A stretch of DNA of 64,000 nucleotides from a virus. Below are positions 23,219 to 41,728 of the stretch, piece by piece. The notes beneath the pieces were generated by a model. The model searched no databases. It was not told the origin of the DNA and worked only from the letters and a program-made list of their open reading frames with translations. Location of the stretch: positions 1 through 64,000 of IMG/VR virus record IMGVR_UViG_3300020471_000623. One strand, 5' to 3'. How positions within the stretch are numbered: position 1 is the first letter of the stretch; each line of letters starts with the position of its first letter. Made by a program: the position numbers and the translations under genes.

Positions 23219-23237
23219 ATAAAATAAGGAGAAAATA

Positions 23238-23447: not shown

Positions 23448-23745
23448 AGGTAGCAAACGTAGACCTGGAAAAGGCTATGAAGATAATTGGGACAGGATAT
23501 TTAGAAAGGAAAAGAATATGATTACAATATATGGAAAGTCAAGATGTAGTTTTTGCACACAAGCAAAAAATCTATGTGAACAGAAAGGTTTAGATTATGA
23601 ATATAAAATGTTAGATGCTGATTATACATCTGATGAATTCTTTGAAACCTTTCCAGGTGCTAGAACCTTCCCACAAATTATTATGAACGGAGAAAAAATT
23701 GGTGGATATGCTGGTCTAGTTGAGTTATTAACTAACGAGGAATAA
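23437..23745 (+). CDS. nrdC: Glutaredoxin with in-frame basic N-terminal peptide (core start probably 23518)
   Basis: CSFC, RTFPQI and IGGY motifs. Confidence 0.88.
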   Translation: MAGKGSKRRPGKGYEDNWDRIFRKEKNMITIYGKSRCSFCTQAKNLCEQKGLDYEYKMLDADYTSDEFFETFPGARTFPQIIMNGEKIGGYAGLVELLTNEE

Positions 23746-23748
23746 ATT

Positions 23749-24201
23749 ATGAACGTATGGAGTTTGTCTGAGATACAGACAAATCATATCATAGATAGTC
23801 AGCCTAAAAAAATGTTGGAATGGGGAAGTGGAGAAGCTTCTCAAAAATTTGTTCAGGCAGGAATAGATCTTACAAGTATAGAACATAACGAAGGCATGTT
23901 TCCACATGCAGGTAATTATAAAGTCGTCCCACCTATACTAAGAACACACTTTGAACCTAAACAATTTATAGATTGGTCACCATATGTAATGGTAGAAAAC
24001 TTAGAACAATACGATTGCATACTAATTGATGGAGAGGCAAGGGGAGAGTGTTTAGCATGGACTGCTAGATATGCAGATAGAAATGCCAGAATATATTTAG
24101 ATGATTATCAACGTGGATGGTATGGTTGGGCATTAGACTTCTTTGATGTTATAAATGTTATAGAAGGTTTTGCACACATGGCAGAGCTAAAAATAAAATG
24201 A
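23749..24201 (+). CDS. Class I SAM-dependent methyltransferase-like protein
   Basis: LEWGSG, SIEH and ILIDG..R motifs. Confidence 0.7.
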   Translation: MNVWSLSEIQTNHIIDSQPKKMLEWGSGEASQKFVQAGIDLTSIEHNEGMFPHAGNYKVVPPILRTHFEPKQFIDWSPYVMVENLEQYDCILIDGEARGECLAWTARYADRNARIYLDDYQRGWYGWALDFFDVINVIEGFAHMAELKIK

Positions 24202-24854
24202 GTGAAAAAGAACAATTACCAAGTGCAGTAGATGACGCAGCAGATGTAATGTCTAAATATGATAGGCCATCTTATGATGACCCTGCACCAGAACCTGTTG
24301 CAACATATGATGGTCCTGAACTATTACATATGACTCACCCTTCTCTAAAGAAAGCACCTTCAGAAGTTAATGTAGAAACAGAAGATCTTAAATTACTAAA
24401 AGAAAAATTACTAGAAGCTATGTATTTTTATGGTGGCGTAGGATTATCTGCTAATCAAGTAGGCATAGATGGCAAGTATTTTGTTATGGGCTCTAAGTTA
24501 GTAACAGAAGAAGAAGAGAATACATTCGAGAAGTGTTTTTTCAATCCTAAAATTGTATCTGTATCTAAAGAAGAAACATCACAGAAAGAAGGTTGTTTAT
24601 CTTTTCCAGGACTATGGTTAATGGTAAAAAGACCTGAAAAGGTAACTTTACAATACATCAATTCTGATGGAGAAGAGATGGTAGAAACATACGAAGGCGT
24701 ATCTGCTAGAGTTATTTTACACGAATATGATCATATGTTAGGTGCAAACTTCACAGGCAGAGTATCTAGACTAAAGCTAGAACGTGGTTTGAAGGCAGCA
24801 CAGAAAAAGTATAAAAAACACCAAAGGCGTATGCAACGCTTTCCACAGGCATAA
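24198..24854 (+). CDS. def: Peptide deformylase
   Basis: GVGLSANQVG, EGCLS and HEYDH motifs. Confidence 0.95.
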   Translation: MSEKEQLPSAVDDAADVMSKYDRPSYDDPAPEPVATYDGPELLHMTHPSLKKAPSEVNVETEDLKLLKEKLLEAMYFYGGVGLSANQVGIDGKYFVMGSKLVTEEEENTFEKCFFNPKIVSVSKEETSQKEGCLSFPGLWLMVKRPEKVTLQYINSDGEEMVETYEGVSARVILHEYDHMLGANFTGRVSRLKLERGLKAAQKKYKKHQRRMQRFPQA

Positions 24855-24882
24855 ATAGTTATTTAACACAAAGGAGTAAGCA

Positions 24883-25233
24883 ATGGCAGAAGAATTTGAT
24901 TTTGGTTTTACCGCCGTAGACGAGCCCGACCAAGGGACACCTGCGCCGGCCGCTCCTTCTATTGATGAAGACAAAATCATGGATAAATTACAGCAGTTAG
25001 AAGCTAAGATATTATCAGCCGATAACTCCGGGATGATCAACGAACACAGATCATTAATTGAATCAGACGTGGCAACAAAACTTCGTGATGTAGAGGATCT
25101 GGTCCTCCCTTTACTATTCAATTTACAAAAGAATCCTGAGAAGGAATATATACATTGGCCAAACAGAACGGCTATCATTGACAAACAAATTGAAAAGATA
25201 AAGGCAGTAACCAGATACTATGAGCGAATCTAA
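24883..25233 (+). CDS. Conserved hypothetical phage protein
   Basis: FDFGFTAVDE and LQKNPEKEYIHWPNR; AAGGAG RBS. Confidence 0.7.
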   Translation: MAEEFDFGFTAVDEPDQGTPAPAAPSIDEDKIMDKLQQLEAKILSADNSGMINEHRSLIESDVATKLRDVEDLVLPLLFNLQKNPEKEYIHWPNRTAIIDKQIEKIKAVTRYYERI

Positions 25234-25816
25234 ACCAATACAACAACAACCAAATCCTAGCAACATATATGAAAAACCCGTTGCTAGGATGTTTGACTTC
25301 TATTTGACAGGTCACATAGAAGAAGCAAAACAATTCCAAGACTGGAACCAGATAATGAGAACAGCAACAGAAAATGATGCTATTATCATACATATAAACT
25401 CTGGTGGAGGCGACATGTTTACAGTAATTCAATTACTAAGAAGCATGACAGAAAGTCCAGCAACTATTGTAGCCTCAGTAGAGGGACAATGTATGTCAGC
25501 AGCTACACTAATCTTTTTATCAGCAGATGTATGTGAAATATCAGAACATAGTCATTTTATGTTTCACACATATAGCTCTGGTAATTGGGGAAAAGGTAGT
25601 GAGCAGTTGGCCTCGGTAACAGCAGATGATAAATGGGCTAGACATCTATTTAATTCTGTTTATAAAAATTTCTTGACCCCACAAGAAATAAAGGAGATAG
25701 TAGACGGTAAGGACCTTTGGATGAATCCTGCAGAAGTGAAAAAACGTTTAGAAGAAAGAAACAAAAAAGCACAAAAATCTAAAGGACCAAAAAAGCCTAA
25801 AAAAGCTTTACTCTAG
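25220..25816 (+). CDS. ClpP-like serine protease
   Basis: INSGGG, GQCMSAAT, FMFH and DLWM motifs. Confidence 0.85.
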   Translation: MSESKPIQQQPNPSNIYEKPVARMFDFYLTGHIEEAKQFQDWNQIMRTATENDAIIIHINSGGGDMFTVIQLLRSMTESPATIVASVEGQCMSAATLIFLSADVCEISEHSHFMFHTYSSGNWGKGSEQLASVTADDKWARHLFNSVYKNFLTPQEIKEIVDGKDLWMNPAEVKKRLEERNKKAQKSKGPKKPKKALL

Positions 25817-25835
25817 GTTCTAGAACGTCTAATAT
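25807..25835 (+). promoter_or_regulatory. Sigma70-like promoter with GGTTC spacer
   Basis: TTTACT-ctaGGTTC-(17-nt spacer)-TAATAT. Confidence 0.5.
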
Positions 25836-25841
25836 TATATT

Positions 25842-26255
25842 ATGAAAAAGAAAGTATATTTAGATTTAAAAGTAAAATCGATTATTTCAGTGCTAGTAAT
25901 ACTAGGTATCATACTTTACGCAGCTCCTATTAAGGCAGCTGATACAAGAGATGTAATAGCTGGTGTTATTATAGGTGGGATTATAGGTTCAGAGATTGAG
26001 AAGGCAAATGAAAGAGCTGGAACAACTGTTATATATCCTAATAATCCTAGAGTGCCATATGGACATAACTCTGTAAGAGAGTATCGTTACTATGAGAAAC
26101 TTCCTAATGCTATAACATATTGCAGAATGCCAATGGATACAATATATGTTCCAGATAAAAGGAATTTTGATCCTCGTCGTGACCCTTTATATTTAGGTGA
26201 ATGGCATTGGTCAGCACATGAGCAAGCGTGGATAAGAGACACTCGACAAAAATAA
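25842..26255 (+). CDS. Exported/membrane protein with glycine-zipper motif
   Basis: Signal-like N terminus; GVIIGGIIG. Confidence 0.6.
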   Translation: MKKKVYLDLKVKSIISVLVILGIILYAAPIKAADTRDVIAGVIIGGIIGSEIEKANERAGTTVIYPNNPRVPYGHNSVREYRYYEKLPNAITYCRMPMDTIYVPDKRNFDPRRDPLYLGEWHWSAHEQAWIRDTRQK

Positions 26256-26273
26256 TATTAATTAAGGAGTGAT

Positions 26274-27839
26274 ATGAAAAATATTATGTATTGTATGGCT
26301 ACGGTCATACTTTTATTCAGCATGTCTGGAGCTTATGCCTCAGATATTGAAGAGGTAATTGTTGTAGGAGCTAAGGTTAGTTACAGCAACAGTGACCCAG
26401 AAAGTGAGTCAAATGCTATGGAAGCAATTGACCCAACAAGAGTATTCCAAGCAGGAGGCTTAGGTGGTTTTAATGCAGCTACAATAAATGGAACTGATAC
26501 TAAACACACAGCAGTCTATAGAAATGGAATACCTGTAAATGACGTAGGTAATGGTTGGTATGATTTTGGAACAGAACTATCTCAGAACCAAATATACAAA
26601 ATAATATCAGGACCTAATAGTGCTATATACGGCAGTTCTTCTATGGGAGGAACAATACTTATTGAAGACTCATTTGAAAGACAAGCATTCTTTCAAGCAG
26701 GTGAGGATACATATAAAGTTATGGCAGGTAATGAGTTCATTAATGTAGGACAATATAGAGGTTCTACAGGAAGTGCTAAATCAAATAACACAGAAAAAGA
26801 TTTCTTTGAAAACACAACGGCTAGAAGTAAATTTGTATTTGGAGATTGGTCTATCAATACCAATCATCAGAAATATGAAACAGATTATGACGGTTGTTGG
26901 AATGCTAATTGGGAAGAAGTAAATGATTGTGTCAGTAAAGGAGAGAAACATGATGTGTCTATTAGAGGTGATTGGCTAACAGTTGGTTATTCTAGAAATG
27001 ATGCACAGTTCTATACAGAAGGAGTTCAAACTTGGTCAGCAGTAAGTGAAAGATATTTTGCTGATGCTAATAAAGAAGTAACTGAAGGTGTAGTAATAGG
27101 ATTACAAGGACATAGAGAGGAATACGGACCTAATTGGGACGAACACCTAGCAGCTTATTTAAATGTTGAACATGTAGATGACGACATGAATAAGATTGGT
27201 TTCTCATATAGATTTGAGGAGAAGGAAAGTATATTTAGATTAGGTGGTGAGTATGGATTATTTAGAATCTCAGCAGCTAATAGTATTCGTAAACCTAACC
27301 TATATGAAAGGTATGGAGATGGATTTGTAAGTGCTAATCCTTTTCTAAAACCTGAAATAGGTAAAGGTATTGAAATGGGATACGACCACTTCTCGGCATG
27401 GTTTTATAGATTCTCAGAAAGTATTGAGTATGACTTTGTAGGTCAACAATATATAAATGCTGGTGGTTATGAATCTAAAGGTGTTAAGTATGACAATTAT
27501 ATAATGTCAGACTATGGAAATTTTGGTGTGTTATTAGTATATCAAGTTACTGATAAAATTAGAATTCCTAAATACAAATCTAAACTATCATGGTTTGATG
27601 GTGACGATGAATTTGATTATGAACTATCTTGGATTGCACAAGTAGACAGAGGCAATGACTTTGATGGCTCTGCAATAGAAGATGTAAACACAATCAACCT
27701 AGATCTTGGCTGGAATTTAGGACCTAATTATAGGATATCACTAGCTATAAATGACATTCTCGATCGAGAATTTGAGGTTTTACCAGGATATGGAGCTGGC
27801 GGAAGAACAGTTTATCTTGGTTTGCGCCTAACTTATTGA
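26274..27839 (+). CDS. TonB-dependent outer-membrane receptor (BtuB-like, compact)
   Basis: Signal peptide; EEVIVVG TonB box; plug motifs NG.PVND and GPNSAIYGSSSMGG.I; C-terminal N.LDREF...GY...GRTVYLGL.Y. Confidence 0.85.
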   Translation: MKNIMYCMATVILLFSMSGAYASDIEEVIVVGAKVSYSNSDPESESNAMEAIDPTRVFQAGGLGGFNAATINGTDTKHTAVYRNGIPVNDVGNGWYDFGTELSQNQIYKIISGPNSAIYGSSSMGGTILIEDSFERQAFFQAGEDTYKVMAGNEFINVGQYRGSTGSAKSNNTEKDFFENTTARSKFVFGDWSINTNHQKYETDYDGCWNANWEEVNDCVSKGEKHDVSIRGDWLTVGYSRNDAQFYTEGVQTWSAVSERYFADANKEVTEGVVIGLQGHREEYGPNWDEHLAAYLNVEHVDDDMNKIGFSYRFEEKESIFRLGGEYGLFRISAANSIRKPNLYERYGDGFVSANPFLKPEIGKGIEMGYDHFSAWFYRFSESIEYDFVGQQYINAGGYESKGVKYDNYIMSDYGNFGVLLVYQVTDKIRIPKYKSKLSWFDGDDEFDYELSWIAQVDRGNDFDGSAIEDVNTINLDLGWNLGPNYRISLAINDILDREFEVLPGYGAGGRTVYLGLRLTY

Positions 27840-27880
27840 TAAATAAGTAAATAAGATTTCAAAAGATTCACTCTGAGGGC

Positions 27881-27909
27881 TTGACAATAGGTTCCTCAGA
27901 GTGCATAAT
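27881..27909 (+). promoter_or_regulatory. Early sigma70-type promoter
   Basis: TTGACA-ataGGTTCctcAGAGTG-CATAAT. Confidence 0.85.
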
Positions 27910-27947
27910 ATACGCATAATTAGTAAAAAGTAAGGACTTTATTAAAT

Positions 27948-30380
27948 ATGAACCAAATTCAAGCACAATCAATATTAGCAAAATGTTTAGCAACAGAAAA
28001 CATTGACATTATTCATGACCCAAAAATGGAAACTGCAGCATTCGATGTTAAGAATCGTAAACTGTATCTTCCAGTATGGCAGGAAATGTCTAAAGACTTA
28101 TATGATTTGCTTATTGGACACGAAGTAGGACATGCACACGAAACTCCAGAAGCTGGATGGCATGATACAGTCATTGACAATCCTCAAAAGAAAGCATTTC
28201 TTAATGTTGTTGAAGACGTTCGTATAGAAAGAAAAGTTAAGGCAAGGTATCCTGGTTTAGTAAAGTCCTTTTACAAAGGTTACCAAGAACTATTTGATAA
28301 AGACTTCTTCGGTATCCAAGATTTAGATATTCAAGACCTTCCTTTAGTTGATAGAGTAAACTTACATTTTAAAATTGGACACTTACTAGGTGTTGAATTT
28401 GCAGACGGATTTGAAAAAGATCTAGTTGAAAGAATTGGTAAGGCAGATACTTGGGCAGAAGTTGAAAAACTAGCTGACGAACTATACAAGAATCATCAAC
28501 AAGAAAGACAAGACAAGCAAGAAGAATATGATGAACTTCTTGAAAAACTTATGCCACACAGATTTACTTCTGAAGGACAACAAGAACAAGAAGAACGTCA
28601 ACAACAAAGACAGCAAGCTCGTCAGAAAATGGAAGACAAAAAAGATGAGCTACAAGAAGCTTATGATAAAGAAGAACAAAGACGTAGAGATTTAAGAGAC
28701 GAGGCATACGACAAAGGCGAAGACTTTGACTATGATCAGTTCAAAGATGAGAACGGTAACGACGAACATGATGAAAAATATTATGACGGCACAACTCGTC
28801 AGGACAGAGAGGACTTCTACAATAAAGAAACAGAACTTGAAAAAGAAGAACAAGCAGATAAAGCTACAGAGGCAGAAGATCAAAAGATCAAAGATAGACT
28901 TGACGAGATTCAAAAGTTCTTAGACGAAGAAGGACATTCAATTACAGACGCTAACTACAGAAAGAACGAAGGTGATTTAGTAGACCAAGACGCTGTTAGT
29001 AACTTATACGCTAAGCCATTCAACGACTTTGATGTTGAAGAAGTTATAGTTCCAATGGACGAACTATATGATTGGAACAAATGCGCAGATCTTACAAAAA
29101 TATCTAGAAGCGAAGACTATGGTTGGGACGAGTCAACAGTTCCAACAGAAGAGTTACCAGGTTTAGGTCAAGAACTTTGGAAAAAATACCAAGCTCAACA
29201 ACAACCTATTATCAACGCTATGGCTCAACAGTTTGAACTTAGAAAAGCAGCTACAGGTTTCAAGAAATCTAGAATTTCTAAAACAGGTAAGTTGAACGAG
29301 GACAAACTTTGGGCTTACAAGTTGACAGAAGATATTTTCCAACAGACACAGATTGTTCCTAACGGTAAGAATCACGGTATCCTAATGTATGTAGATATGT
29401 CAGGAAGTATGCACAAGAACTTCTACGGCACCCTACAACAAATGGAAACGGTTGCAATGTTCTGTAGAAAAGTAAACATTCCATTTGATGTGTATGGTTT
29501 TTCAAGTGAAGCAAGAAAAGGAGCCCTACAATATGATGAGAATGGTTATGTTACTGATGAAAGACAAGTAGGTGAGGAAGGTAGAATAGTTCTTAACAGA
29601 CATGATTCAATGGTCCACATTCTTAGTTCTAAGGCTAACAAGAAGGATTGGAACAATGCAATGGCATACCTACAAGTTATTAAAATTTGCTACATGGGTT
29701 ACAGATACTACGGTGACATCAATGATACAGATACACCTTACTATGGTTATGCAAGTAACAGACACTTTAGACTAGGTTCTACTCCACTTAACTTTGGAAT
29801 TATTGCAGGCACAGAAATTGCACAAAGATTCCAGAAAAGATACAATGTAGAGAAGTTGACTACAATCTTCTTAACAGACGGTGGTGCTACAGATTATGTT
29901 ACTGTTAGGACTGAAGACAATGGTAGAGTTCAAGCAGGTTCATATGAAACTAAAAGATTGGTTATCCAAGACGGTAGTTCAACATGTGCTCTTCCTCAGA
30001 AGTCATCATACTATGGTGGTAGAGAAGAAACAACTAACACTCTGCTTACATACTACAAGCAAAAGACAGGGTCTACAGTAATTAATTTCCACATATTAGA
30101 GTCAGGTAAAAGATATGACTTTGATAGAGAGATAGGTGGTTACATGGACGACTTATCCTGGAAAAAGATTCTTAAGGACAAGTTCACAATGTTCACTCCT
30201 AAAGCAGGATACGATGCAAGGTTCCTACTTAAAGGTAAGGACGATCTTAAAATTAAGAGCACAGAACTTGAAGTAAAATCCAACAAAAAAGGAGATTTAC
30301 TTAGAGGTTTTAGACAGTTTAACAAAGGAAAGTCAGGACAAAGAACTTTCCTCAACCAAATCATAGAGTTAGTAGCATGA
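27948..30380 (+). CDS. Metallopeptidase-motif/vWA protein (phage CobT-like)
   Basis: HEVGH, NVVED.RIE, DMSGSM and FLTDG motifs; paired with MoxR ATPase. Confidence 0.8.
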   Translation: MNQIQAQSILAKCLATENIDIIHDPKMETAAFDVKNRKLYLPVWQEMSKDLYDLLIGHEVGHAHETPEAGWHDTVIDNPQKKAFLNVVEDVRIERKVKARYPGLVKSFYKGYQELFDKDFFGIQDLDIQDLPLVDRVNLHFKIGHLLGVEFADGFEKDLVERIGKADTWAEVEKLADELYKNHQQERQDKQEEYDELLEKLMPHRFTSEGQQEQEERQQQRQQARQKMEDKKDELQEAYDKEEQRRRDLRDEAYDKGEDFDYDQFKDENGNDEHDEKYYDGTTRQDREDFYNKETELEKEEQADKATEAEDQKIKDRLDEIQKFLDEEGHSITDANYRKNEGDLVDQDAVSNLYAKPFNDFDVEEVIVPMDELYDWNKCADLTKISRSEDYGWDESTVPTEELPGLGQELWKKYQAQQQPIINAMAQQFELRKAATGFKKSRISKTGKLNEDKLWAYKLTEDIFQQTQIVPNGKNHGILMYVDMSGSMHKNFYGTLQQMETVAMFCRKVNIPFDVYGFSSEARKGALQYDENGYVTDERQVGEEGRIVLNRHDSMVHILSSKANKKDWNNAMAYLQVIKICYMGYRYYGDINDTDTPYYGYASNRHFRLGSTPLNFGIIAGTEIAQRFQKRYNVEKLTTIFLTDGGATDYVTVRTEDNGRVQAGSYETKRLVIQDGSSTCALPQKSSYYGGREETTNTLLTYYKQKTGSTVINFHILESGKRYDFDREIGGYMDDLSWKKILKDKFTMFTPKAGYDARFLLKGKDDLKIKSTELEVKSNKKGDLLRGFRQFNKGKSGQRTFLNQIIELVA

Positions 30381-30397
30381 TTCTTTTGAAAAAATGC

Positions 30398-30426
30398 TTG
30401 ACTCTTGGTTCGCCAGAGTGCATAAT
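30398..30426 (+). promoter_or_regulatory. Early sigma70-type promoter
   Basis: TTGACT-cttGGTTCgccAGAGTG-CATAAT. Confidence 0.85.
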
Positions 30427-30464
30427 ATACAGTATAAATTAAATTAATAAGTGAGGACTTAATT

Positions 30465-31652
30465 ATGAAGAAAATAGATAGAGAAAACCTAGTAGCCAGA
30501 CTCCAAGAACAGGACAACGGCACAGGTGTTTTTACTCGTAGGCAGATTATAGATACTGCCGAGAGCTTAGGACTAGGCTTCCCAGCTTGGTTAGTAAATG
30601 GTAGGAAAGACCTTAAAGTAGACAGAGGTGTTTACAACCTTACAGCAATGTTCGGTGGTCAGGCAGTAGCTCCAGTAGCTCAACCTACTATTCCAGCAGC
30701 TCAACCAATTGAGGTTGTTGAAACTAAGAATCCTGAATTTGTAGTTCAGGCAAAACTTCAAGTAGAAGTTGATAACTTGGTTCCAAACAAAGACGAAACT
30801 TTCGTCCCTTTTGGTTTTTACAAAGATTTGAAAAAGGTATTACAAGGTAACTTGTTTTATCCAATTTTCATAAGTGGCTTATCAGGTAATGGTAAGACTA
30901 CAATGGTAGAACAAGTATGTGCTAATCTTAAAAGAGAGGCTATACGAGTTAATATTAGTATTGAAACTGATGAGGATGATTTAATCGGTGGCAATACTCT
31001 AGTTGACGGTAACGTCGTTTACAGAGAGGGACCAGTCCTCACCGCTATGAAGCGTGGTGCCATTCTAATACTTGATGAAATAGATAGAGGCTCAAATAAA
31101 ATGATGTGTCTTCAGGCAATACTAGAAGGCAAGCCTTATTTCAACAAGAAAACAGGCGAAACCGTAGCTCCTGCTCCCGGCTTTAACATTGTTGCAACAG
31201 CCAACACAAAAGGTCGAGGTTCAGACGATGGCAAATTTATTTCAGCCAACATACTCGACGAGGCATTCCTAGAAAGGTTTGCAATTACCGTGGAGCAGGA
31301 GTATCCTACAATGGCAACCGAGAAAAAGATTGTCCTAAGAAAAATGGACAGAGCTAATATCCAAGATGAGGATTTTGCTACACACTTGGTTACATGGTCA
31401 GATGTTATTCGTAAAACATATTACGAAGGTGCAATTGACGAGTTGATTTCAACACGTAGGTTAGAACACATCGTGAACGCGTTTGCCGTATTTGGCGACA
31501 AACAAAAAGCAGTTCAACTTTGTGTCAACAGGTTTGACGAAGATACTAAACAAGCATTCATTGACTTGTATAGTAAAGTTGACCCTACAGTTGAACTTAA
31601 CGAGGCTGATGTAGACTCTGAACAAGAGATACACGAAGATGGCGAAAGTTAA
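30465..31652 (+). CDS. MoxR-type AAA+ ATPase (phage CobS-like)
   Basis: GLSGNGKT, ILDEID, ATANTKG and DEAFLERF motifs. Confidence 0.9.
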   Translation: MKKIDRENLVARLQEQDNGTGVFTRRQIIDTAESLGLGFPAWLVNGRKDLKVDRGVYNLTAMFGGQAVAPVAQPTIPAAQPIEVVETKNPEFVVQAKLQVEVDNLVPNKDETFVPFGFYKDLKKVLQGNLFYPIFISGLSGNGKTTMVEQVCANLKREAIRVNISIETDEDDLIGGNTLVDGNVVYREGPVLTAMKRGAILILDEIDRGSNKMMCLQAILEGKPYFNKKTGETVAPAPGFNIVATANTKGRGSDDGKFISANILDEAFLERFAITVEQEYPTMATEKKIVLRKMDRANIQDEDFATHLVTWSDVIRKTYYEGAIDELISTRRLEHIVNAFAVFGDKQKAVQLCVNRFDEDTKQAFIDLYSKVDPTVELNEADVDSEQEIHEDGES

Positions 31653-32097
31653 GTTAAACGAAACTGTAACTCATAAGGTCACCGAATATAAATTCGGTGA
31701 TCTTACATCTGAGGAACTGAAAGAAACATTTCAAGATGGCAGGATTGCTTCTTGGTTTATGGAACAACAATTACCATATTGGTATCCAGAATTAACCAGA
31801 GTAACAGGCCAAAAAGATCATGATCATATAGATAATACAGGCAGGTTATTTGATCAGAAGACGTTTACTGCCAGAGGTGTAACTTGTTTACCTAGTAACC
31901 AGCAAGGTAAAGGCAGAACTTTTAATGAAGAGGCTGCTTATGAAAAGGCAAACAAGTTAATTTATATTATTACAGACGTGAATGACTTTCCAAATATTCA
32001 TGTAAGATTTGTAGAGGGTAAAGAATTAATTAATAATTATCCTCAATTGAAAGTTAAATTCACACAACGAGAGGAGTTCTTATGGCCAAAGATATAG
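31639..32097 (+). CDS. Putative type II restriction-like endonuclease (RsaI-like by recalled similarity)
   Basis: D..D-x-DQK PD-(D/E)xK-like core; DGR..S...E, GV...PSNQ.G.GR.FNE and I.D...FP.I.V blocks match my memory of RsaI; not verified by alignment. Confidence 0.6.
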   Translation: MAKVKLNETVTHKVTEYKFGDLTSEELKETFQDGRIASWFMEQQLPYWYPELTRVTGQKDHDHIDNTGRLFDQKTFTARGVTCLPSNQQGKGRTFNEEAAYEKANKLIYIITDVNDFPNIHVRFVEGKELINNYPQLKVKFTQREEFLWPKI

Positions 32098-32387
32098 ATT
32101 ATAAATTTAATGAAGGTGAACTTACAAAAGAACTAGCAGATTATATTGATGCCACATACGATGGACACTATTCTAAAAACAAATTCCAATCTACGGAATT
32201 CATTGTTGATTGTGGACATGGTATTGGATTTACAATAGGAAATATTCTAAAGTATGCACAACGTTACGGTAGAAAAGGCACCACAGAGGACCATAGAAAG
32301 GACCTAATGAAGGTTCTACATTATGGCATTATTGCTTTATCCATTCACGATAACGAAACTACACAGCACTATTTAGACGAAGAGTAA
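32082..32387 (+). CDS. DUF3310 / T7 gp1.7-like putative nucleotide kinase
   Basis: HY, GF..GNILKYAQRYG.K and DLMK.LHY motifs. Confidence 0.65.
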   Translation: MAKDIDYKFNEGELTKELADYIDATYDGHYSKNKFQSTEFIVDCGHGIGFTIGNILKYAQRYGRKGTTEDHRKDLMKVLHYGIIALSIHDNETTQHYLDEE

Positions 32388-32390
32388 CCA

Positions 32391-32714
32391 ATGACATTCG
32401 TCGTCGGTTCACCTTGTGTAGGTTGCAAAGATACAAAGTGCGTTACAGTATGCCCTGTGGATTGTTTCCACGAGGGTCCTAACATGCTTGTAATCAATCC
32501 CGACGACTGTATTGATTGTGGACTTTGTGTTCCTGAATGTCCTGTATCAGCAATATGGAGTGAAGATGAAGTCCCTGCTGAGGAGATAGAATTTATAGAA
32601 ATAAATGCCAAAAAAGCATATGAATGGCCTGTTATAGATGAAGAGAAAGAGCCTATGGCACATAAATCTCCCCACACAACAGCAGAAGCTATAGCAGTAG
32701 TTCTACTAGACTAA
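32391..32714 (+). CDS. fdxA: 7Fe-type ferredoxin (FdxA-like)
   Basis: [18 protein letters not shown] and [16 protein letters not shown] motifs. Confidence 0.92.
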
Positions 32715-32725
32715 TAAATACATAT

Positions 32726-34279
32726 ATGAATCATGGAATGATATTAGGTTGTCTCCAGGCACATCCTGGTTGGCAAGGGCAGGGTAAAGACAATAATTGG
32801 ATAAGTCTAAAACGTTCTGCTGGTTCTCATAAAATTGCTAGTTTTATGAGGAAAGAAGGTTGGGATATTGAAGTCATAGATTATTGGTTAGCATTTACTG
32901 AGGAAGAGTTTCAAACATTAATTAGAGCTAGAGTAACAAGTGATACAAAATTTATAGGAGTATCTGTTACATTTGGTTTCAGAGGAGATACTCTAAAAAG
33001 AGCACAAGATAATCTTACATGGTTAAAAGAAAACTATCCAGATATCATGATCGTTGCAGGTTCTAAATCCATTAGTGATACAATGAACTTACCTTGTGAT
33101 TATTATGTAACAGGTTACGGAGAGTTTGGACTACAACATCTATTAAATGGAACAGCAAAGATAACAGATTTTCAAGGCAAGAAGGTTGTAAATTCAGATA
33201 AAGATCATCCATGTTTTCCTCAAAAAGATTTAGTAACAAGATACGAAGAAAGAGATTTTATACAACCAACGGATACTTTAACCTTAGAACTATCCAGAGG
33301 ATGCAAATTTAAATGTAAATTTTGTTCTTACAATGCTATAGGATTGAAAGGCGACATTGATAGAGATATGTCTACACTATATGCAGAGCTAAAAGAAAAT
33401 TATGAGAAGTGGGGTGTAACAGATTACCACGTAGCAGATGAAACAACAAACGACAACACAGAAAAATTAAGACGAGCTGCTGAGGAGATTAGAAAATTAC
33501 CTTTCACACCTAACATGACAGGATTTATTAGAGCAGATCTTTTAATATCCAGAGAACATGATAAAGAGTATTTGGCAGAGATGGGATATTGGGCACACTT
33601 CTATGGTATAGAAACTTTTGACCAAAAGGCAGGACAAGTAATTGGTAAAGGTATGAATAGGGACAAACAGAAACAAGGTTTGTTAGATCTCAGAGATTAC
33701 TTCTGGAAACAATGTGGTAGATATCGTAGCACAACATCTCTTATTGTAGGTTTACCTTACGAAACAAGACAGTCATTATTTGATGGTTTAGATTGGCATA
33801 AAGAGAACTTTCCAAAAGAAAACTTACAGATAAATATATTGTTCATAAATAAATTTGCAGAACATTTAGGAGATATGTTTTCTCAATCTGATTTTGATAT
33901 GACTTGGAAAGATGGAAAACACTTTCACGAAAGATTAATACAGGATGATGAGGAAGTAGAAGCAACACCAGAAGCATTTGTTGATGGCCTTAAACATTTA
34001 TGGTTTAACTATAAAAGACATTCTGCTTTACCCTGGTCTCATGATACATTTAATTGGTGGACAGCACATCTTGCAACAAGAGATATCTACATGTCTAATA
34101 AAAATTATATGAGAGATAGAGGCCCTATGAATTGGGACTTATTTAATTTTACAACTCCTGGAACATATGATTGGGATAGTGTATTAGAAATGTCTTATGA
34201 TGATTATGATGAAGAAAGATTGGAAAAAGATACAAAATTACATATCCAAAAATATAAAAATGCTAAGTTAAACGTATAA
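32726..34279 (+). CDS. Radical SAM protein with B12-binding-like N-terminal region
   Basis: ELSRGCKFKCKFC, ADET, GIET and IVGLPYET motifs. Confidence 0.85.
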   Translation: MNHGMILGCLQAHPGWQGQGKDNNWISLKRSAGSHKIASFMRKEGWDIEVIDYWLAFTEEEFQTLIRARVTSDTKFIGVSVTFGFRGDTLKRAQDNLTWLKENYPDIMIVAGSKSISDTMNLPCDYYVTGYGEFGLQHLLNGTAKITDFQGKKVVNSDKDHPCFPQKDLVTRYEERDFIQPTDTLTLELSRGCKFKCKFCSYNAIGLKGDIDRDMSTLYAELKENYEKWGVTDYHVADETTNDNTEKLRRAAEEIRKLPFTPNMTGFIRADLLISREHDKEYLAEMGYWAHFYGIETFDQKAGQVIGKGMNRDKQKQGLLDLRDYFWKQCGRYRSTTSLIVGLPYETRQSLFDGLDWHKENFPKENLQINILFINKFAEHLGDMFSQSDFDMTWKDGKHFHERLIQDDEEVEATPEAFVDGLKHLWFNYKRHSALPWSHDTFNWWTAHLATRDIYMSNKNYMRDRGPMNWDLFNFTTPGTYDWDSVLEMSYDDYDEERLEKDTKLHIQKYKNAKLNV

Positions 34280-34291
34280 ATATTATAAATA
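34275..34291 (+). promoter_or_regulatory. Tandem late promoters TATAAATA
   Basis: Two exact copies at 34275 and 34284. Confidence 0.75.
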
Positions 34292-34313
34292 GTAAAACAA
34301 GATAGAGGTAAAC

Positions 34314-34673
34314 ATGGCCTATAAAGTAACAGTAACATACAAAAGACCTAACACAGGAGTTGACTTTCCTAAGGCAGCAGATCATGACAGTGATTACTAC
34401 GATTGGTTAAGACAAGAATACCAAGACCGTAGTATTTCTCCTTCATTTGAATTGTCAGAAGATGAACTAACATTGAAGGCTTCAAGTGAATGTGCAGACA
34501 GAGCAACTTATGATGCTTGGAGAGCAGCAGATGATGCCGATGGTAGATATGCAGCTACAGTTAAAGCTGGCATTAATTCAGACTTAGCATCTAGAAACAT
34601 TACAGTTAAAATAGATGCTGAAGAAGATGGAACAGTTACTAATCTTGTTGCAGAAGGAAACGCACTTCCCTAA
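34314..34673 (+). CDS. Late hypothetical protein
   Basis: GAGG RBS; directly follows late promoters. Confidence 0.7.
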   Translation: MAYKVTVTYKRPNTGVDFPKAADHDSDYYDWLRQEYQDRSISPSFELSEDELTLKASSECADRATYDAWRAADDADGRYAATVKAGINSDLASRNITVKIDAEEDGTVTNLVAEGNALP

Positions 34674-34703
34674 CCAAAACGTAGCAATTGGTATGCTACA
34701 CTA

Positions 34704-34732
34704 TTGATTTATACTATGAAAGATCCTATAAT
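34704..34732 (+). promoter_or_regulatory. Sigma70-like promoter for gp45
   Basis: TTGATT-17 nt-TATAAT; spacer TACTATG shared with the uvsY promoter. Confidence 0.65.
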
Positions 34733-34763
34733 AATAGGATAATAAATTTGGAGATATTATATT

Positions 34764-35420
34764 ATGAAAATTAGTAATGATACTATTGAAGTCCTAAAAA
34801 ACTTTGCAGGTATTAACACAAACATTCTCGTTCGAGAAGGCAACACACTTTCCACAATTAGCACAGGCAAAAATATTTTTGCTAAGGCAGAATTGAAGGA
34901 AACATTTCCAAAAGAATTTGCAATCTATGATCTAAATAGTTTGCTATCTCTTCTTACATTAACTGAAGATGCTGATATTAGCTTTGAAGATGAAAGTCTA
35001 AAAGTTAGTAAAGGTAATTCTGTTTTTGAATATTTTTATGCAGACCCTAACATTATTGTTACTGCTCCTGATAAAAGTATTGAAGTAGATAACTTCTTCC
35101 AGTTCGACTTAACAAAAGATGATATTGATATGATCATGAAGGCAGCAGCTATTACAGCAGCTCCTATGTTAAGTATTGTAGGACAAGGTGGAGAAGTAAT
35201 TGTTACAGTAGGAGACCCTAGCACACCTAAGTCTAATAGTTTTAGACAAGTTATAGGAACTACTGATAAGGAATTTGATGCCAGACTTGCAGTGGAGAAT
35301 TTTAAAGTTATTCCTGCTAGTTATACAGTAACACTTTCTCAGAAGAAGTTTATGTTCTTGGAAAGTAGCAAAAGTGAATTGAAATATTGGTTGGCGCTTG
35401 AGCGTTCTTCCACTATATAA
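34764..35420 (+). CDS. gp45: Sliding clamp
   Basis: LKNFAGIN, FAIYDL and YWLALE motifs. Confidence 0.95.
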   Translation: MKISNDTIEVLKNFAGINTNILVREGNTLSTISTGKNIFAKAELKETFPKEFAIYDLNSLLSLLTLTEDADISFEDESLKVSKGNSVFEYFYADPNIIVTAPDKSIEVDNFFQFDLTKDDIDMIMKAAAITAAPMLSIVGQGGEVIVTVGDPSTPKSNSFRQVIGTTDKEFDARLAVENFKVIPASYTVTLSQKKFMFLESSKSELKYWLALERSSTI

Positions 35421-35429
35421 GGAGACGTT

Positions 35430-35615
35430 ATGGACGAAGATAAATTAGAGGTTACTCTTAGAGAGGCAACCAATGGTTGGATTGTAGAATTCAACAGAAG
35501 TGGTGAAACTGTAGAATACATTTTCACAAGACCTAACCCAGCTATCTCATTAGTTAGAAAAGTAATGAAGGGAGAGCTAGATGTATTTGGAACGGAGGAT
35601 GACATCGATGAGTGA
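35430..35615 (+). CDS. Hypothetical protein
   Basis: AAGGAG RBS; EATNGWIV motif. Confidence 0.65.
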   Translation: MDEDKLEVTLREATNGWIVEFNRSGETVEYIFTRPNPAISLVRKVMKGELDVFGTEDDIDE

Positions 35616-36198
35616 GTTAGCAACAAGTTTACCAGCAGTTAAATTTAAGAAACATGTAAAGGCAACTGATGGTATTGCAAGATGGGTTGATATAGACATA
35701 TCAGAGTTGGCAGAAGGTAAAAAGATTGTAATCTTTGGATTGCCTGGTGCTTTTACTCCTACATGTTCTAGTCAACAACTACCTGGTTTTGAGGAAAACT
35801 ATTTTCTATTTCGAGATGCAGGTATAGATGATATTTATTGTGTGACAGTAAATGATACTTTCGTATGCAGTAAATGGGCAATGGACCAAGAGCTTGCCAA
35901 TGTAAAAGTATTACCAGATGGTAGTGGAGAATTTACAATTAAAATGGGTATGGACGTTAGGAAAGATAACCTAGGGTTTGGTATGAGATCTTGGAGATAT
36001 GCAGCAGTATATGACGATGGCATGCTTGTCTGGTCAGGTGTTGAAGAAGGATTTGGAGATAATTTTGAGGGTGACCCTTATGAAGTTTCTAAACCTGAGA
36101 ATGTCCTAGAAGCTGTGAAAGGTTTGAACTTTACTAAAGGTAAAGAGATAAATTTGGACTTTTCAGATACGACAGATGTTAAGGAGACTTTTTCGTAG
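35608..36198 (+). CDS. Peroxiredoxin, Prx5 type (start probably at MSELA)
   Basis: LPGAFTPTCS, VND.FV and GMRSWRYA motifs. Confidence 0.92.
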   Translation: MSELATSLPAVKFKKHVKATDGIARWVDIDISELAEGKKIVIFGLPGAFTPTCSSQQLPGFEENYFLFRDAGIDDIYCVTVNDTFVCSKWAMDQELANVKVLPDGSGEFTIKMGMDVRKDNLGFGMRSWRYAAVYDDGMLVWSGVEEGFGDNFEGDPYEVSKPENVLEAVKGLNFTKGKEINLDFSDTTDVKETFS

Positions 36199-36274
36199 AC
36201 CTTTTTCTACGGTCAAAAAACCGTCCGAAAAAAAGAGCAAAAAAGTTTCTGACTAAATTATGATATGGTGAATT

Positions 36275-37213
36275 ATGGAAACAGGACAATTTTTATGGGT
36301 TGAAAAATATAGACCCATGCACATACAAGATTGTATTTTGCCTGAACAGGTAAAAGAACAATTCCAACAATTTATAGCAAAGGGAGAAGTTCCTAACTTG
36401 CTATTATCTGGTTCTGCAGGAACAGGTAAAACAACAATAGCTCGTGCTTTATGTAATGAACTAGGTTGTGACTACATTGTTATTAATGGTAGTGATGAAG
36501 GCAGACAGATAGATACTCTCAGAACAAAGATAAAGCAGTTTGCATCTGCTGTATCTTTTGAGGGTAAAACAAAGGTAGTTATATTAGATGAGGCTGACTA
36601 TATGAACAGAGATAGTGTTCAGCCAGCCCTTAGAGCGTTCATAGAAACGTTCTCTGAGAACTGTAGGTTTATATTTACATGTAACTACTCTAATAGGCTT
36701 ATAGAGCCCCTACATAGCAGGACTACTGTTATAGACTTTAAGTTAGCCCCCTCAGACAAGCCTGTATTAGCGTCTAAGTTCCTTAAACGTATGGAATACA
36801 TACTGAATAATGAGGGTGTAGACTACAATCAGAGGGTTCTGGCGGAGCTTTTAAACAAGTATTTTCCAGACTATCGTAGGGTTATAAATGAGCTACAGAG
36901 ATACTCTGTGGGAGGTTCTATAGATGAGGGTATATTAAGTAACTTCCAAGAAATCAATGCTAAGGCCCTAGTAGAGAGCCTCAGAGAGAAGGATTGGAAG
37001 AAGATGAGGCAATGGATTGCCAACAATATAGACACAGACCCACAACATGTATTTAGGCAGATATATGATATATTACTGCCTGAAGTTAAGGGTATTCCAC
37101 ACTTGGTCTTGTTAATTGCAGATTATCAGTATAAAGCAGCTTTCGTTGCAGATCAGGAAATTAACTTGACAGCCTGTTTGACTGAAATAATGGCAAATGT
37201 GGAATTTAAGTAA
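36275..37213 (+). CDS. gp44: Clamp loader large subunit
   Basis: WVEKYRP, GTGKTT, LDEAD and FPDYRR motifs. Confidence 0.96.
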   Translation: METGQFLWVEKYRPMHIQDCILPEQVKEQFQQFIAKGEVPNLLLSGSAGTGKTTIARALCNELGCDYIVINGSDEGRQIDTLRTKIKQFASAVSFEGKTKVVILDEADYMNRDSVQPALRAFIETFSENCRFIFTCNYSNRLIEPLHSRTTVIDFKLAPSDKPVLASKFLKRMEYILNNEGVDYNQRVLAELLNKYFPDYRRVINELQRYSVGGSIDEGILSNFQEINAKALVESLREKDWKKMRQWIANNIDTDPQHVFRQIYDILLPEVKGIPHLVLLIADYQYKAAFVADQEINLTACLTEIMANVEFK

Positions 37214-37368
37214 TGGCCAAAAAAGACGCTGTTCTGACTCTTAGGGTTTCTGCTCAAGAAAAAGAAGAAATCAAGAAAGAAGCAGAAATTAGAGAAATAA
37301 CAATTACAGAACTTCTGATGAAAGGCTTCAAAATCATGAAAGAAGGACAATACATTGACTTTAAGTAA
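37213..37368 (+). CDS. Ribbon-helix-helix DNA-binding protein, 51 aa (not in ORF track)
   Basis: TAATG coupling to gp44; VLTLRVSAQEKEEIKKEAEIREITITELL fits the RHH pattern. Confidence 0.7.
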   Translation: MAKKDAVLTLRVSAQEKEEIKKEAEIREITITELLMKGFKIMKEGQYIDFK

Positions 37369-37519
37369 ATTATGGAGATTATGGTGTTTATCCCTAGGCG
37401 ACAAAGCAAGTGATAACACCAAGGATGCAGACATGGTGGCAATTATGAGGTCCATCGTTGTTTTAGTAAATTTTGTAACCTGTTTTTTCATTGTAGCAGG
37501 TATATTGAGGCATTGGTGA
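37355..37519 (+). CDS. Small membrane protein (not in ORF track)
   Basis: TTG start after AAGGA; WRLWCLSLGDKAS...FFIVAGILRHW. Confidence 0.6.
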   Translation: MTLSKLWRLWCLSLGDKASDNTKDADMVAIMRSIVVLVNFVTCFFIVAGILRHW

Positions 37520-37764
37520 TGACGTTTCCAGATATAATAGGACTAACAGGAGTTGCATTGCTTATAATTACATATGCTCTATTACAATTAGATAGAATTG
37601 ACCCTAAAGGGTTTTGGTATAGTTTCAATAATTTGATTGTAGCTATTTTGGTTACAGTTAGTTTGATATATACTCCTAATCTTGCTAGTATTGTAATAGA
37701 AGTGTTTTGGTTTATAATTAGTTTATATGGTGTTGTAATGTATTACAACAGGAAGAGAATATGA
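37513..37764 (+). CDS. Small multi-TM membrane protein (CBU_0592-like)
   Basis: IG..GV.L....Y.LLQ, YS..N and IE.FW..IS.YG pattern. Confidence 0.65.
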   Translation: MVMTFPDIIGLTGVALLIITYALLQLDRIDPKGFWYSFNNLIVAILVTVSLIYTPNLASIVIEVFWFIISLYGVVMYYNRKRI

Positions 37765-38237
37765 GTGATAGTATATTAGAAGGATTTGGAGAACCTATCG
37801 TAGAGGTAGATGAGAAAGAGTTTGAAGACAAACTCAAGAAGATATCTCCTTTTGACTTCGTAAATAGCATAAACTATTCTAAAGAAAACTTAATTGTAGA
37901 TGAAAGAACAGAAAAAGAATATAATCCATTCATTGTAAATCGTGCAATGGGCTTTGGTCCTGATACAGTTATTGCAGGTAATGAAATGAATAGCAGGCAT
38001 CACTTAGACAACAAAATGCAGTATGACTTTCTAATGGCAACTGTTAGAAAGGCAAAGAGATATAATAAATGGATAAAAGCAGAAGAATCTAACATTGAAG
38101 CTATACAAAAGTTCTTCGGTTATTCCTTTATGAAGGCAAAAGAAGCACTAAAACTTTTAAATGAAGATCAAATTGATAGAATCAAACTACATTTAGCCAT
38201 GTCTCAAGGGGGCCAAAAGGTCCAAAAACATAAATAA
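37761..38237 (+). CDS. gp62: Clamp loader small subunit
   Basis: PFDFVNSIN, YNPFIVNR and QYDFL motifs. Confidence 0.9.
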   Translation: MSDSILEGFGEPIVEVDEKEFEDKLKKISPFDFVNSINYSKENLIVDERTEKEYNPFIVNRAMGFGPDTVIAGNEMNSRHHLDNKMQYDFLMATVRKAKRYNKWIKAEESNIEAIQKFFGYSFMKAKEALKLLNEDQIDRIKLHLAMSQGGQKVQKHK

Positions 38238-38274
38238 GTTATTATAGACATAATAATTTACAAGAAACAGAGAA

Positions 38275-38703
38275 TTGAGAATGGTTGATCAAGACAATTA
38301 CTTTAATATAGACTATCCAGGTTATTCACCCTTAGAAGTTTCATTAAAGGACCCAGAAGATTTCCTAAAAGTGAGGGAGACTCTATCACGAATAGGTGTT
38401 GCTTCTAAGAAGGAAAAGGTTCTTTATCAGTCTTGTCATATACTGCACAAAAAAGGTAGATACTTTATTACACATTTTAAAGAACTATTTGCATTAGACG
38501 GCAAGGAAGCTGACTTCCAAGACAATGATTTACAACGAAGAAATACAATAGCAAAACTACTATCCGATTGGGGATTAGTAGACATCATTTCTAAAGATGT
38601 TGATGATTATGCTCCTTTAAGTCAGATAAAAATAATATCATTTAAGGAGAAGGGTGAGTGGGAGCTAATCCCTAAATATAACATTGGGAAGAAAGTCAAA
38701 TAA
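38275..38703 (+). CDS. regA: Translational repressor RegA
   Basis: DFLKVRETLSRIG and LYQSCHILHKKGRYFITHFKELF motifs. Confidence 0.96.
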   Translation: MRMVDQDNYFNIDYPGYSPLEVSLKDPEDFLKVRETLSRIGVASKKEKVLYQSCHILHKKGRYFITHFKELFALDGKEADFQDNDLQRRNTIAKLLSDWGLVDIISKDVDDYAPLSQIKIISFKEKGEWELIPKYNIGKKVK

Positions 38704-40628: not shown

Positions 40629-40631
40629 TTT

Positions 40632-40639
40632 TATAAATA
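40632..40639 (+). promoter_or_regulatory. Late promoter TATAAATA
   Basis: Exact consensus at the start of a long structured intergenic region. Confidence 0.7.
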
Positions 40640-41357: not shown

Positions 41358-41373
41358 TTACAGGAGAAGGAGC

Positions 41374-41727: not shown

Positions 41728-41728
41728 T

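Follow-up and report, generated by a model that had tools for sequence, protein, structure and literature searches.

A restriction endonuclease-like gene of an RsaI-like family without an adjacent methylase in a GTAC-free, T4-like virus

Textbooks present restriction enzymes as defences of the host that depend on a partner methylase, and they read the avoidance of target sites by phages as escape. It is already known that viruses can encode type II systems of their own, that phages avoid restriction sites, and that T4 destroys host DNA while exempting its own genome through base modification; Sharp 1986 and Rusinov 2018 are said to be the classic surveys of restriction-site avoidance. Among the enzymes tied to GTAC, R.RsaI from Rhodobacter (Rhodopseudomonas) sphaeroides cuts its target to blunt ends (GT^AC), and its partner M.RsaI is an N4-cytosine methylase. 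Here we analyse a 152-amino-acid (aa) open reading frame (ORF) at positions 31639-32097 of a 64,000-nucleotide stretch of viral DNA (IMG/VR record IMGVR_UViG_3300020471_000623, positions 1 to 64,000; hereafter, the window). An original prediction, made from the letters alone, had taken this ORF for an orphan RsaI-like GTAC endonuclease in a phage that protects itself by eliminating the site rather than by methylating it, and that idea, at its core, held up in the comparisons reported below.

Several described systems resemble this locus in part. The RsaI restriction-modification (R-M) system is likewise based on a small type IIP enzyme tied to GTAC; M.RsaI makes N4-methylcytosine in GTAC, and GTAC is avoided in R. 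sphaeroides (PMC2588503). In the window, by contrast, there is no methylase, the carrier is a lytic-type phage rather than a bacterium, and protection would come from the absence of sites. The type II R-M systems of chloroviruses (CviQI, G^TAC, with an adenine methylase) offer a parallel in being virus-encoded 4-cutters, to which a role in breaking down the host's DNA soon after infection is ascribed, but chloroviruses protect themselves by methylation. M.CviQI is given as a GTAC adenine methylase in PMC2588503. T4 endonucleases II and IV, combined with hydroxymethylcytosine, present a comparable logic, in that host DNA is destroyed by a phage nuclease from which the phage's own genome is chemically or compositionally exempt; T4, however, marks self by a modified base, whereas the phage studied here would mark self by lacking a four-letter word. 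The complete loss of a 4-bp palindrome, with 18 of 22 examined changes leaving the amino acid unaltered, also recalls the palindrome avoidance of phages that is usually ascribed to host R-M systems, although here it tracks the phage's own nuclease and close relatives do not show it. In T4-like phages, free-standing homing endonucleases share the pattern of a gene present or absent between conserved neighbours (41 relatives versus the window and locus L006), but they are GIY-YIG or HNH enzymes with a long, rare target near the insertion, whereas here the fold is PD-(D/E)XK and a genome-wide 4-mer tracks the gene. Homologous nucleases are found in other marine T4-like phages, in the cassettes of Synechococcus phage Syn19 (gp153 with the methylase gp154), Syn2 and ACG-2014j; in these cyanomyovirus cassettes the nuclease gene shares an overlap with the gene of a PF01555 methylase, which is missing here, and GTAC is reduced but present (18/34 and 16/34 in 10-kb stretches), as opposed to zero.

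We consider it likely that the product of the ORF is a type IIP endonuclease, active as a homodimer and directed at GTAC, that the gene was inserted alone into a phage that is immune by having no GTAC, and that the enzyme cuts the DNA of the host and/or of rivals. The two halves of this arrangement are as follows:

31639..32097, + strand: nuclease gene, PD-(D/E)XK homologue of the RsaI-like family, 152 aa, ATG start, without an adjacent methylase
1..64000, continuing to base 82,084 and onto related contigs: GTAC-free genome, the self-protection half of the system

GTAC was indeed absent from the 64-kb window, as the original prediction had noticed, against 179 ± 14 occurrences in 100 shuffles. 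The source record is a linear IMG/VR viral contig of 82,084 bp (CheckV completeness ~50%), and its full length also contained no GTAC, compared with 215 occurrences expected under a second-order Markov model; no other 4-mer was absent from it, the next-lowest palindromes being CGCG (0.33) and GGCC (0.58). Twenty-two GTAC sites found in the CobS genes of eight relatives appeared as one-base variants in the window, 18 of them without amino-acid change, three with a change and one at a gap. Across the contig, 4,081 positions lie one substitution away from GTAC, including 684 where that substitution would be synonymous and 237 in intergenic DNA. None of these 921 silent one-step GTACs was present in any member of the clade; since none has arisen despite a synonymous divergence of 0.13–1.05 within the clade, selection against GTAC is still acting. 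A sequencing or assembly artefact was considered as a source of the absence and rejected: GTAC-free and GTAC-rich relatives share samples, the stretch is present in DNA runs of several studies, and the changes mostly preserve the amino acid.

The search for a methylase was equally unproductive, in agreement with the original prediction. The motif [DNS]PP[YFWH] was absent from all stop-free frames of ≥150 aa on the contig, and six-frame searches of the contig with PF02086, PF01555, PF00145, PF02384 and PADLOC PDLC03255 returned no methylase. With related contigs, the sequence could be followed ~46 kb beyond the left end of the window contig and ~5 kb beyond its right end, and the resulting composite of ~133 kb contained neither GTAC nor a methylase detectable with PF01555, with hidden Markov models (HMMs) built from the loci described below, or by motif screens. 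A GTAC methylase elsewhere in the genome, which the original prediction had named as evidence that would speak against it, was therefore found neither on the contig nor in the composite. The place directly beside the nuclease, where a cognate methylase might be sought, is occupied by a CobS-like and a DUF3310 gene, which overlap the ORF on either side. In the related phage Melnitz, a C5 methylase is encoded next to the DNA polymerase gene (PMC9004378); no C5 methylase follows the DNA polymerase gene in the window, and none was found elsewhere on the contig.

The association between gene and site loss was then evaluated across viruses. An IMG/VR scan with a nine-sequence alignment yielded 149 relatives, of which the best 80 loci were analysed with up to 10 kb per side; GTAC was counted in each locus against a Markov expectation, and methylases were screened for by motif and with HMMs built from the loci. 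Among the 36 loci without a methylase, 32 had no GTAC (28 observed and 992 expected over the whole group), while only five of the 44 loci with a methylase were GTAC-free (354 observed/1346 expected, 0.26); in 42 of these 44 the methylase lay within 170 bp of the nuclease, and in two it was ~2 kb off rather than adjacent. For comparison, 79 relatives without the nuclease were collected using CobS as an anchor (65–87% identical), none of which has a member of the nuclease family in the stretch examined; a single one had no GTAC (2423/3373, 0.72). The correlation between presence of the gene and GTAC depletion thus came out as had been predicted, and did so across several virus lineages, and the equal loss of GTAC in gene-less relatives that would have pointed to a host enzyme was not seen, with 78 of 79 retaining the site. 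Seven methylase-less contigs of 30–94 kb, taken whole, contained 0 GTAC versus 843 expected in total; Pelagibacter phage HTVC008M has 200 versus 209 expected in 50 kb. GTAC was the only 4-mer absent from the GTAC-free methylase-less set, and the most depleted 4-mer in methylase-paired carriers. The second most depleted 4-mer in the GTAC-free methylase-less set was GATC, with 451 occurrences compared with 1215 expected (observed/expected ratio (O/E) 0.37); its O/E in the window contig was 0.68.

The partner methylases of the paired loci fall into proteins with an SPPY motif, which belong to PF01555, and proteins with an NPPF motif, which match PADLOC MTase_II PDLC03255/03256. D12-class Dam methylases were tried as candidate partners and set aside, PF02086 giving only two weak sub-threshold matches in the 44 records searched, out of 50 loci considered. 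The NPPF methylases are ~32% identical to methylases of rV5-like phages; in Bas51, a phage of the rV5-like group, adenine methylation was quantified in GATC and GTAC motifs (PMC12548924). Family members paired with NPPF methylases were also observed on contigs of giant-virus metagenome-assembled genomes (GVMAGs), with 26–39% G+C (L030, L057, L059, L060, L064, L065, L068, L069 and L076); a link between these GVMAG members and the chlorovirus GTAC system CviQI is possible. The five paired loci without GTAC in the stretch (L055, L057, L063, L068 and L069, among L003-L082) look like intermediates towards methylase loss.

To follow the GTAC-free state along related genomes, conserved anchors other than CobS were used. 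With tail sheath as the anchor, 11 of 12 loci at ≥82% identity were GTAC-free, the twelfth being the mosaic L182, and all 63 loci at 57–77% identity kept GTAC (O/E 0.31–1.03); five further GTAC-free loci appeared at 55–56% identity, four of which share samples with three members of the L028/L042 lineage, L040, L043 and L061. With a second anchor, 7/7 loci at ≥95% identity were GTAC-free, and 72 of the 73 others had an O/E of ≥0.63. For an anchor at the right end, where 18 of 80 loci were counted, the five most similar were GTAC-free and the other 13 stood at O/E 0.60–1.04.

A maximum-likelihood tree was built from 83 members of the family, 66 of them distinct, and on it the methylase-less state requires at least six changes, of which at least two are forced by well-supported branches. 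The clade of the window (100% support) is nested within a clade (99% support) of 42 methylase-paired and seven lone genes. The position of the lone gene differs between lineages: it follows CobS in the window lineage and precedes it in L018, follows a gp41-type helicase gene in L028 and L042 and UvsW in L078, and lies among baseplate-region genes in L034, L045 and L051; it is also found in L010, L023, L041 and L044, from viruses that otherwise have no genes in common with the window. Paired carriers showed graded depletion of GTAC, from an O/E of 1.15 down to 0, and this gradient, together with the distribution of lone genes, suggests an order of events in which acquisition of a cassette was followed by site depletion and then by loss of the methylase.

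Assignment of the ORF to a nuclease family agrees with the RsaI-like character first proposed for it. The protein matches PADLOC REase_II PDLC03550 over residues 22-129 (E 1.2e-11; 4.2e-12 in a six-frame search), as does Syn19 gp153, annotated 'R.RsaI endonuclease' (1.6e-11), with which it shares 33% identity (BLASTP E 5e-21) and, among viral models, its fold (template modelling (TM) score 0.88, root-mean-square deviation (rmsd) 1.9 Å). By tblastn, relatives were located in five phage records, including the 'R.RsaI endonuclease' genes of Synechococcus phages Syn19 and ACG-2014j and an unnamed gene in Syn2. An exhaustive phmmer search delineated a family of 290 cluster representatives at E ≤ 1e-3, mostly ~150 aa long and metagenomic. 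Other searches with the nuclease were negative: Pfam returned only a sub-threshold match to Endonuclease_7 (E 0.22), NCBIfam and PHROGs had no matching model, the PDB had no matching chain by sequence at E ≤ 10, plasmids had no relative by tblastn, and megablast of 4.5 kb against phage records found no match. In the protein collections, names of relatives were all 'hypothetical' or absent, with no bacterial member or REBASE-type name tied to the family. A control search with PDLC03550 matched in E. coli only and not in Methanocaldococcus jannaschii, which has the GTAC enzyme MjaV, a result that bears neither way. A few longer proteins contain the nuclease domain or partial repeats of it (P0054, P0077 and P0102, of 421–478 aa, and P0170, of 1533 aa with 11 matched stretches); these may be fusions, perhaps of nuclease and methylase, or miscalled genes.

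An AlphaFold2 model based on a 43-sequence alignment reached a predicted local distance difference test score (pLDDT) of 97 and a predicted TM score of 0.90, and by this model the protein has the PD-(D/E)XK restriction-enzyme fold with an intact acidic/lysine motif. Foldseek against the PDB placed PvuII first (E 1.6e-3 to 6e-3, prob 0.97–1.0), followed by NhoI, NlaIV, MutH and EcoRV. VIA-align, over 48,161 chains, gave NhoI (Z 7.4, rmsd 5.0, 110 aligned), I-Ssp6803I (Z 7.2, rmsd 3.8, 109 aligned), PvuII (Z 6.7, rmsd 3.4, 105 aligned) and EcoRV (Z 5.5); its top rows were nearly all PD-(D/E)XK nucleases, and HinP1I was also among the nearest folds. R.PabI did not appear among the rows listed by the fold searches, the top rows of which were PD-(D/E)XK enzymes, although a family missing from these rows is not thereby excluded. 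PvuII, an enzyme of the EcoRV-like branch (CAG^CTG), resembles the protein in size (~155 aa), in fold and in the latter's predicted dimerisation through the N-terminal part, and differs in sequence (13–17% identity only), in target, and in working with M.PvuII. The parts of the gene on which the functional reading draws are the following:

31822..31860, + strand: codons of the putative catalytic motif D62 ... D72-Q73-K74
31762-31764, + strand: codon of E42, in the first long helix, near-invariant (82/83 family members)
31678..31782, + strand: predicted symmetric homodimer interface, residues 14-48, from complex prediction

The acidic core reads D60-H-D62-H-I-D65 ... D72-Q73-K74, and the 10-residue spacing of D62 ... 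D72-x-K74 equals that in PvuII, whose catalytic residues we take to be D58, E68 and K70. D62 and K74 are invariant in all 83 family members, of which 78 have D and five have E at position 72; all 37 methylase-less copies keep E42, D62, D/E72 and K74 together. The sequence blocks in which the original prediction saw a remembered likeness to R.RsaI are all present, DGRIASWFME at residues 33-42, GVTCLPSNQQGKGRTFNE at residues 80-97 and IITDVNDFPNIHV at residues 110-122, and they are the most conserved columns of the family alignment. Complex prediction yielded a symmetric homodimer with a score of 0.80, whereas none of three controls scored above 0.00, and the three runs agreed in 100% of contacts with a partner pLDDT of ≥87; the predicted interface residues in both copies are 14-22, 26, 30, 33, 35-36, 39-40, 43-44 and 47-48. 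Among proteins of solved structure, 20 of 30 pairs of one chain attained this mark, compared with 1 of 23 single-chain proteins, and the pass may reflect likeness, because similar restriction enzymes have been solved as dimers. The ratio of non-synonymous to synonymous substitution rates (dN/dS) was 0.07–0.20 in the 14 pairs, out of 15 methylase-less gene pairs, whose dS was estimable (dS up to ~2), a pattern of strong purifying selection that indicates a gene kept functional.

The surroundings of the nuclease gene consist of the following features:

30465..31652, + strand: CobS-like AAA+ ATPase gene, upstream neighbour of the nuclease gene
32082..32387: DUF3310 gene, downstream neighbour of the nuclease gene
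31639..31652, + strand: 14-nt overlap of the nuclease start with the CobS-like AAA+ end, left junction of the single-gene insertion
32082..32097, + strand: 16-nt overlap of the nuclease end with the DUF3310 start, right junction of the single-gene insertion
30398..30426, + strand: site resembling a promoter (TTGACT-17-CATAAT), within the 84-nt gap that precedes the CobS-like gene

The 152-aa ORF wedged between the CobS-like and DUF3310 genes is thus real, with the overlaps that had been described for it. In 41 relatives (L084-L124; CobS 78–85% identical), CobS and DUF3310 are separated by -7 to +53 nt with no gene between them, and only in the window and L006 is there a gap, of ~460 nt, filled by the nuclease gene. 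Because the two flanking genes abut in these relatives, the ORF is best described as a clean single-gene insertion, and for the same reason, the relatives lacking the nuclease, DUF3310 is not a specific partner of it. The suggestion that an adjacent nucleotide kinase recycles nucleotides is not supported: the neighbouring gene encodes only a 60-residue DUF3310 domain, its best match being phrog_480, of unknown function. The promoter-like site agrees with the consensus at 10 of 12 positions, and the region holds seven such matches compared with 7.2 in shuffles; as a possible start of a transcription unit that includes the nuclease gene, it is a lead only.

Two other parts of this region were noted. 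Directly 3' of the DUF3310 gene, positions 32391-34279 of the window encode a 107-aa 2x[4Fe-4S] ferredoxin and a 517-aa radical SAM protein with a B12-binding domain, an unusual auxiliary pair for a T4-like phage. Upstream of CobS, at 27948-30380, an 810-aa protein with no Pfam match and a long charged stretch rich in E/K/Q/D sits where HTVC008M has a gene annotated 'peptidase'.

By its gene content, the virus is a T4-like myovirus, with PHROG matches on the contig to structural proteins (tail sheath, portal, scaffold, major head protein) and to DNA polymerase, UvsW-type and DnaB-like helicases and a gp46-like nuclease subunit. In tblastn, the major capsid proteins of two phages, Methylophilales phage Melnitz and Pelagibacter phage HTVC008M, are 70–71% identical to that of the virus, which is therefore related to the marine 'pelagimyophages' (SAR11 and OM43 myophages). 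An R-M system was reported in only one of >100 SAR11 genomes in a pelagimyophage paper (PMC7029224); should the host be SAR11-like, this rarity would make a host cause of the GTAC loss unlikely and leave the host DNA cuttable. The lineage is common in ocean metagenomes, near-identical nuclease proteins being recorded on >300 contigs each, and part of the stretch was found in DNA runs (20 rows from 10 studies, with four possible-source rows left out). Exact pieces of the ORF region (31280-31712, 31892-32088 and 32020-32279) were also present in metatranscriptome contigs of two studies, a weak sign of transcription given that DNA carry-over is possible. Positions ~31713-31891 had no contig cover in four RNA runs, although contigs cannot show absence, level, strand or ends.

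A number of observations weigh against the reading of the ORF as a lone, self-exempting GTAC-cutter. A host that methylates GTAC would have uncuttable DNA. The label 'R.RsaI' on Syn19 gp153 was given by its depositors, so that the likeness runs through phage annotations; the structural Z scores are middling (max 7.4), and the Foldseek E values against the PDB lie above 1e-3. With the contig at only ~50% of the genome, orphan status rests on the ~80% coverage provided by the ~133 kb composite, and the remaining fifth or so may hold a methylase. Two contigs of a methylase-less lineage, G038 and G043, carry an ORF of 484–506 aa with a partial PF01555 match (E 1.1e-6); this partial-PF01555 ORF, which has an SPPY motif, is at 7322-8773 in L169 and 1621-3138 in L175, in a GTAC-free lineage and >20 kb from the nuclease, and 'orphan' for the G038/G043 clade means only 'no adjacent methylase'.

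Exceptions to the association also count on this side. Four of the 36 methylase-less loci hold GTAC (L039, L070, L052 and L048). In L039, all 12 GTAC sites fall in positions 1-6485, where identity to GTAC-free relatives is ~73%, and none falls in positions 6727-10518, where it is 92.7%, a distribution that marks the sites of this locus, on sequence comparison, as the product of a mosaic. L182 (1-7144) was observed to switch as abruptly from GTAC-containing to GTAC-free as L039 (1-10518), and each of these contigs may be either a chimeric assembly or the natural recombinant of an armed with an unarmed phage. In L070 (nine GTAC), a methylase may have been cut off, because the gene is 340 bp from the contig end, and the single GTAC of L052 lies 9.7 kb from the nuclease gene. 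L048 is unexplained: it holds six GTAC (27 expected), and its four neighbouring ORFs contain no methylase domain, only a glycosyltransferase domain. Conversely, L143 (CobS 71% identical) has 0 GTAC compared with 39 expected and no nuclease on its 24-kb contig, which represents only ~13% of the genome; in this locus (1-15891), a 205-aa ORF at 5806-6423 stands between CobS and DUF3310, with no Pfam match and no membership of the nuclease family. L143 implies either that GTAC can be lost without a nearby gene or that the gene is located elsewhere in that genome.

Other explanations were weighed against the same evidence. The gene could be a selfish, homing-like element that, in mixed infections, cuts GTAC-bearing relatives, with recombinational repair from the GTAC-free genome copying the gene and its GTAC-free flanks into the rival (marker exclusion, known from free-standing endonucleases of T4-like phages) and any benefit to the phage being secondary. 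Insertion of a single gene between genes that otherwise abut, the different insertion points in different T4-like lineages, the switch of L039 and L182 at a drop in identity, as expected of recombinants, and the presence of the PD-(D/E)XK homing endonuclease I-Ssp6803I among the nearest folds all fit such an element. We nonetheless regard it as improbable, since a 4-bp site would have a rival cut hundreds of times, favouring destruction over precise gene conversion, since L039 and L182 may be chimeric metagenome assemblies, and since losing GTAC from the whole genome is a price far too high to expect of a passenger that is merely selfish; the idea is in any case compatible with our preferred explanation, and the two are not exclusive. 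It is less probable still, and in our view quite unlikely, that GTAC restriction by hosts purged the sites and that the nuclease gene settled later as a passenger. Site avoidance caused by host enzymes is well established in general, and a genome with sites cannot acquire a lone nuclease, so that by logic the sites must already have been depleted to some extent; L143 lacks GTAC, and its 24-kb contig bears no nuclease. GTAC is also avoided in bacteria with GTAC systems (PMC2588503, PMC10273834). However, relatives with CobS 78–85% identical, from similar marine samples, keep GTAC (O/E 0.45–0.97), and it was on this ground that a host-enzyme cause was set aside. Moreover, zero GTAC tracks the methylase-less gene in at least two, and probably ~6, independent lineages, the depletion in paired carriers (0.26 versus 0.72 in non-carriers) provides a route that needs no host enzyme, and the catalytic residues and dN/dS indicate a gene kept functional. 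The rarity of R-M systems in SAR11 hosts (PMC7029224) argues in the same direction.

Whether the gene is an orphan at all depends on the part of the genome outside the assemblies, where a GTAC methyltransferase or a genome-wide base modification could make it one half of an ordinary, split R-M pair. The ~50% completeness of the contig, the two of 44 paired loci with a methylase ~2 kb away, the distant methylase-like ORF in one 'orphan' clade and the C5 methylase that Melnitz, a relative, encodes next to its DNA polymerase gene lend this some plausibility; yet the ~133 kb composite is without a methylase, the Melnitz position is without a C5 methylase here, zero GTAC would leave a GTAC methylase without substrate, and a protective modification would lift the selection that keeps the 921 one-step sites from arising. 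We accordingly hold a hidden partner to be very unlikely. Least probable of all, and close to negligible in our assessment, is a repurposed or inactive fold that does not cut GTAC, serving as a DNA-binding regulator or as a nuclease with another target, with the loss of GTAC otherwise caused: every one of the 37 methylase-less copies retains D62, D/E72 and K74, purifying selection is strong, and the link between methylase loss and zero GTAC (32/36 versus 5/44) is hard to explain unless the enzyme cuts GTAC.

The lone GTAC endonuclease that we favour would operate as follows. The enzyme would be a homodimeric PD-(D/E)XK protein of the PvuII/EcoRV-like type, a type IIP enzyme recognising GTAC. 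Expressed in the infected cell, it would cut any unmethylated DNA bearing GTAC, and the phage would be exempt through having no GTAC in its genome, self and non-self being told apart by sequence composition and not by modification. Cutting of the host chromosome would bring about shut-off and supply nucleotides, and/or the genomes of co-infecting, GTAC-bearing relatives would be cut; degradation of host or competitor DNA, which was part of the original prediction, would follow from the proposed specificity. As to origin, a virus-borne nuclease-methylase cassette may select against GTAC in its carrier, driving the site down as fast-replicating DNA would never be fully methylated, and once the sites were gone the methylase could be lost. 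We give about even chances to the broader proposition that such self-inflicted restriction avoidance is a recurrent viral route, leading to a bare 4-cutter that destroys the host chromosome, plasmids, rivals and even close relatives.

In the literature searched, with subscription journals outside its scope, we found no description of a GTAC-free phage that carries a GTAC nuclease, or one like RsaI, on its own. What appears to be new is the combination of a lone nuclease, no methylase and total site absence as the sole protection, in several viral lineages. The textbook roles would here be reversed, with the phage owning the nuclease, having dropped the methylase, and using a missing four-letter word to mark self. 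For practical purposes, zero GTAC together with the nuclease gene may serve as a simple marker for sorting metagenomic contigs into lineages, the family would give enzymologists a range of naturally occurring 4-cutter variants, and caution is warranted when host R-M pressure is inferred from k-mer avoidance in phages. To our knowledge, marine T4-like phages do not use T4's modified cytosine, and the means by which they destroy host DNA or exclude rivals are unsettled; the nuclease gene is a candidate answer to that question. If the proposed activity is true, part of viral restriction-site avoidance would be caused by viruses' own nucleases and not by host defences, and sequence composition alone would act as a self-marker, allowing discrimination between self and non-self free of any modification.

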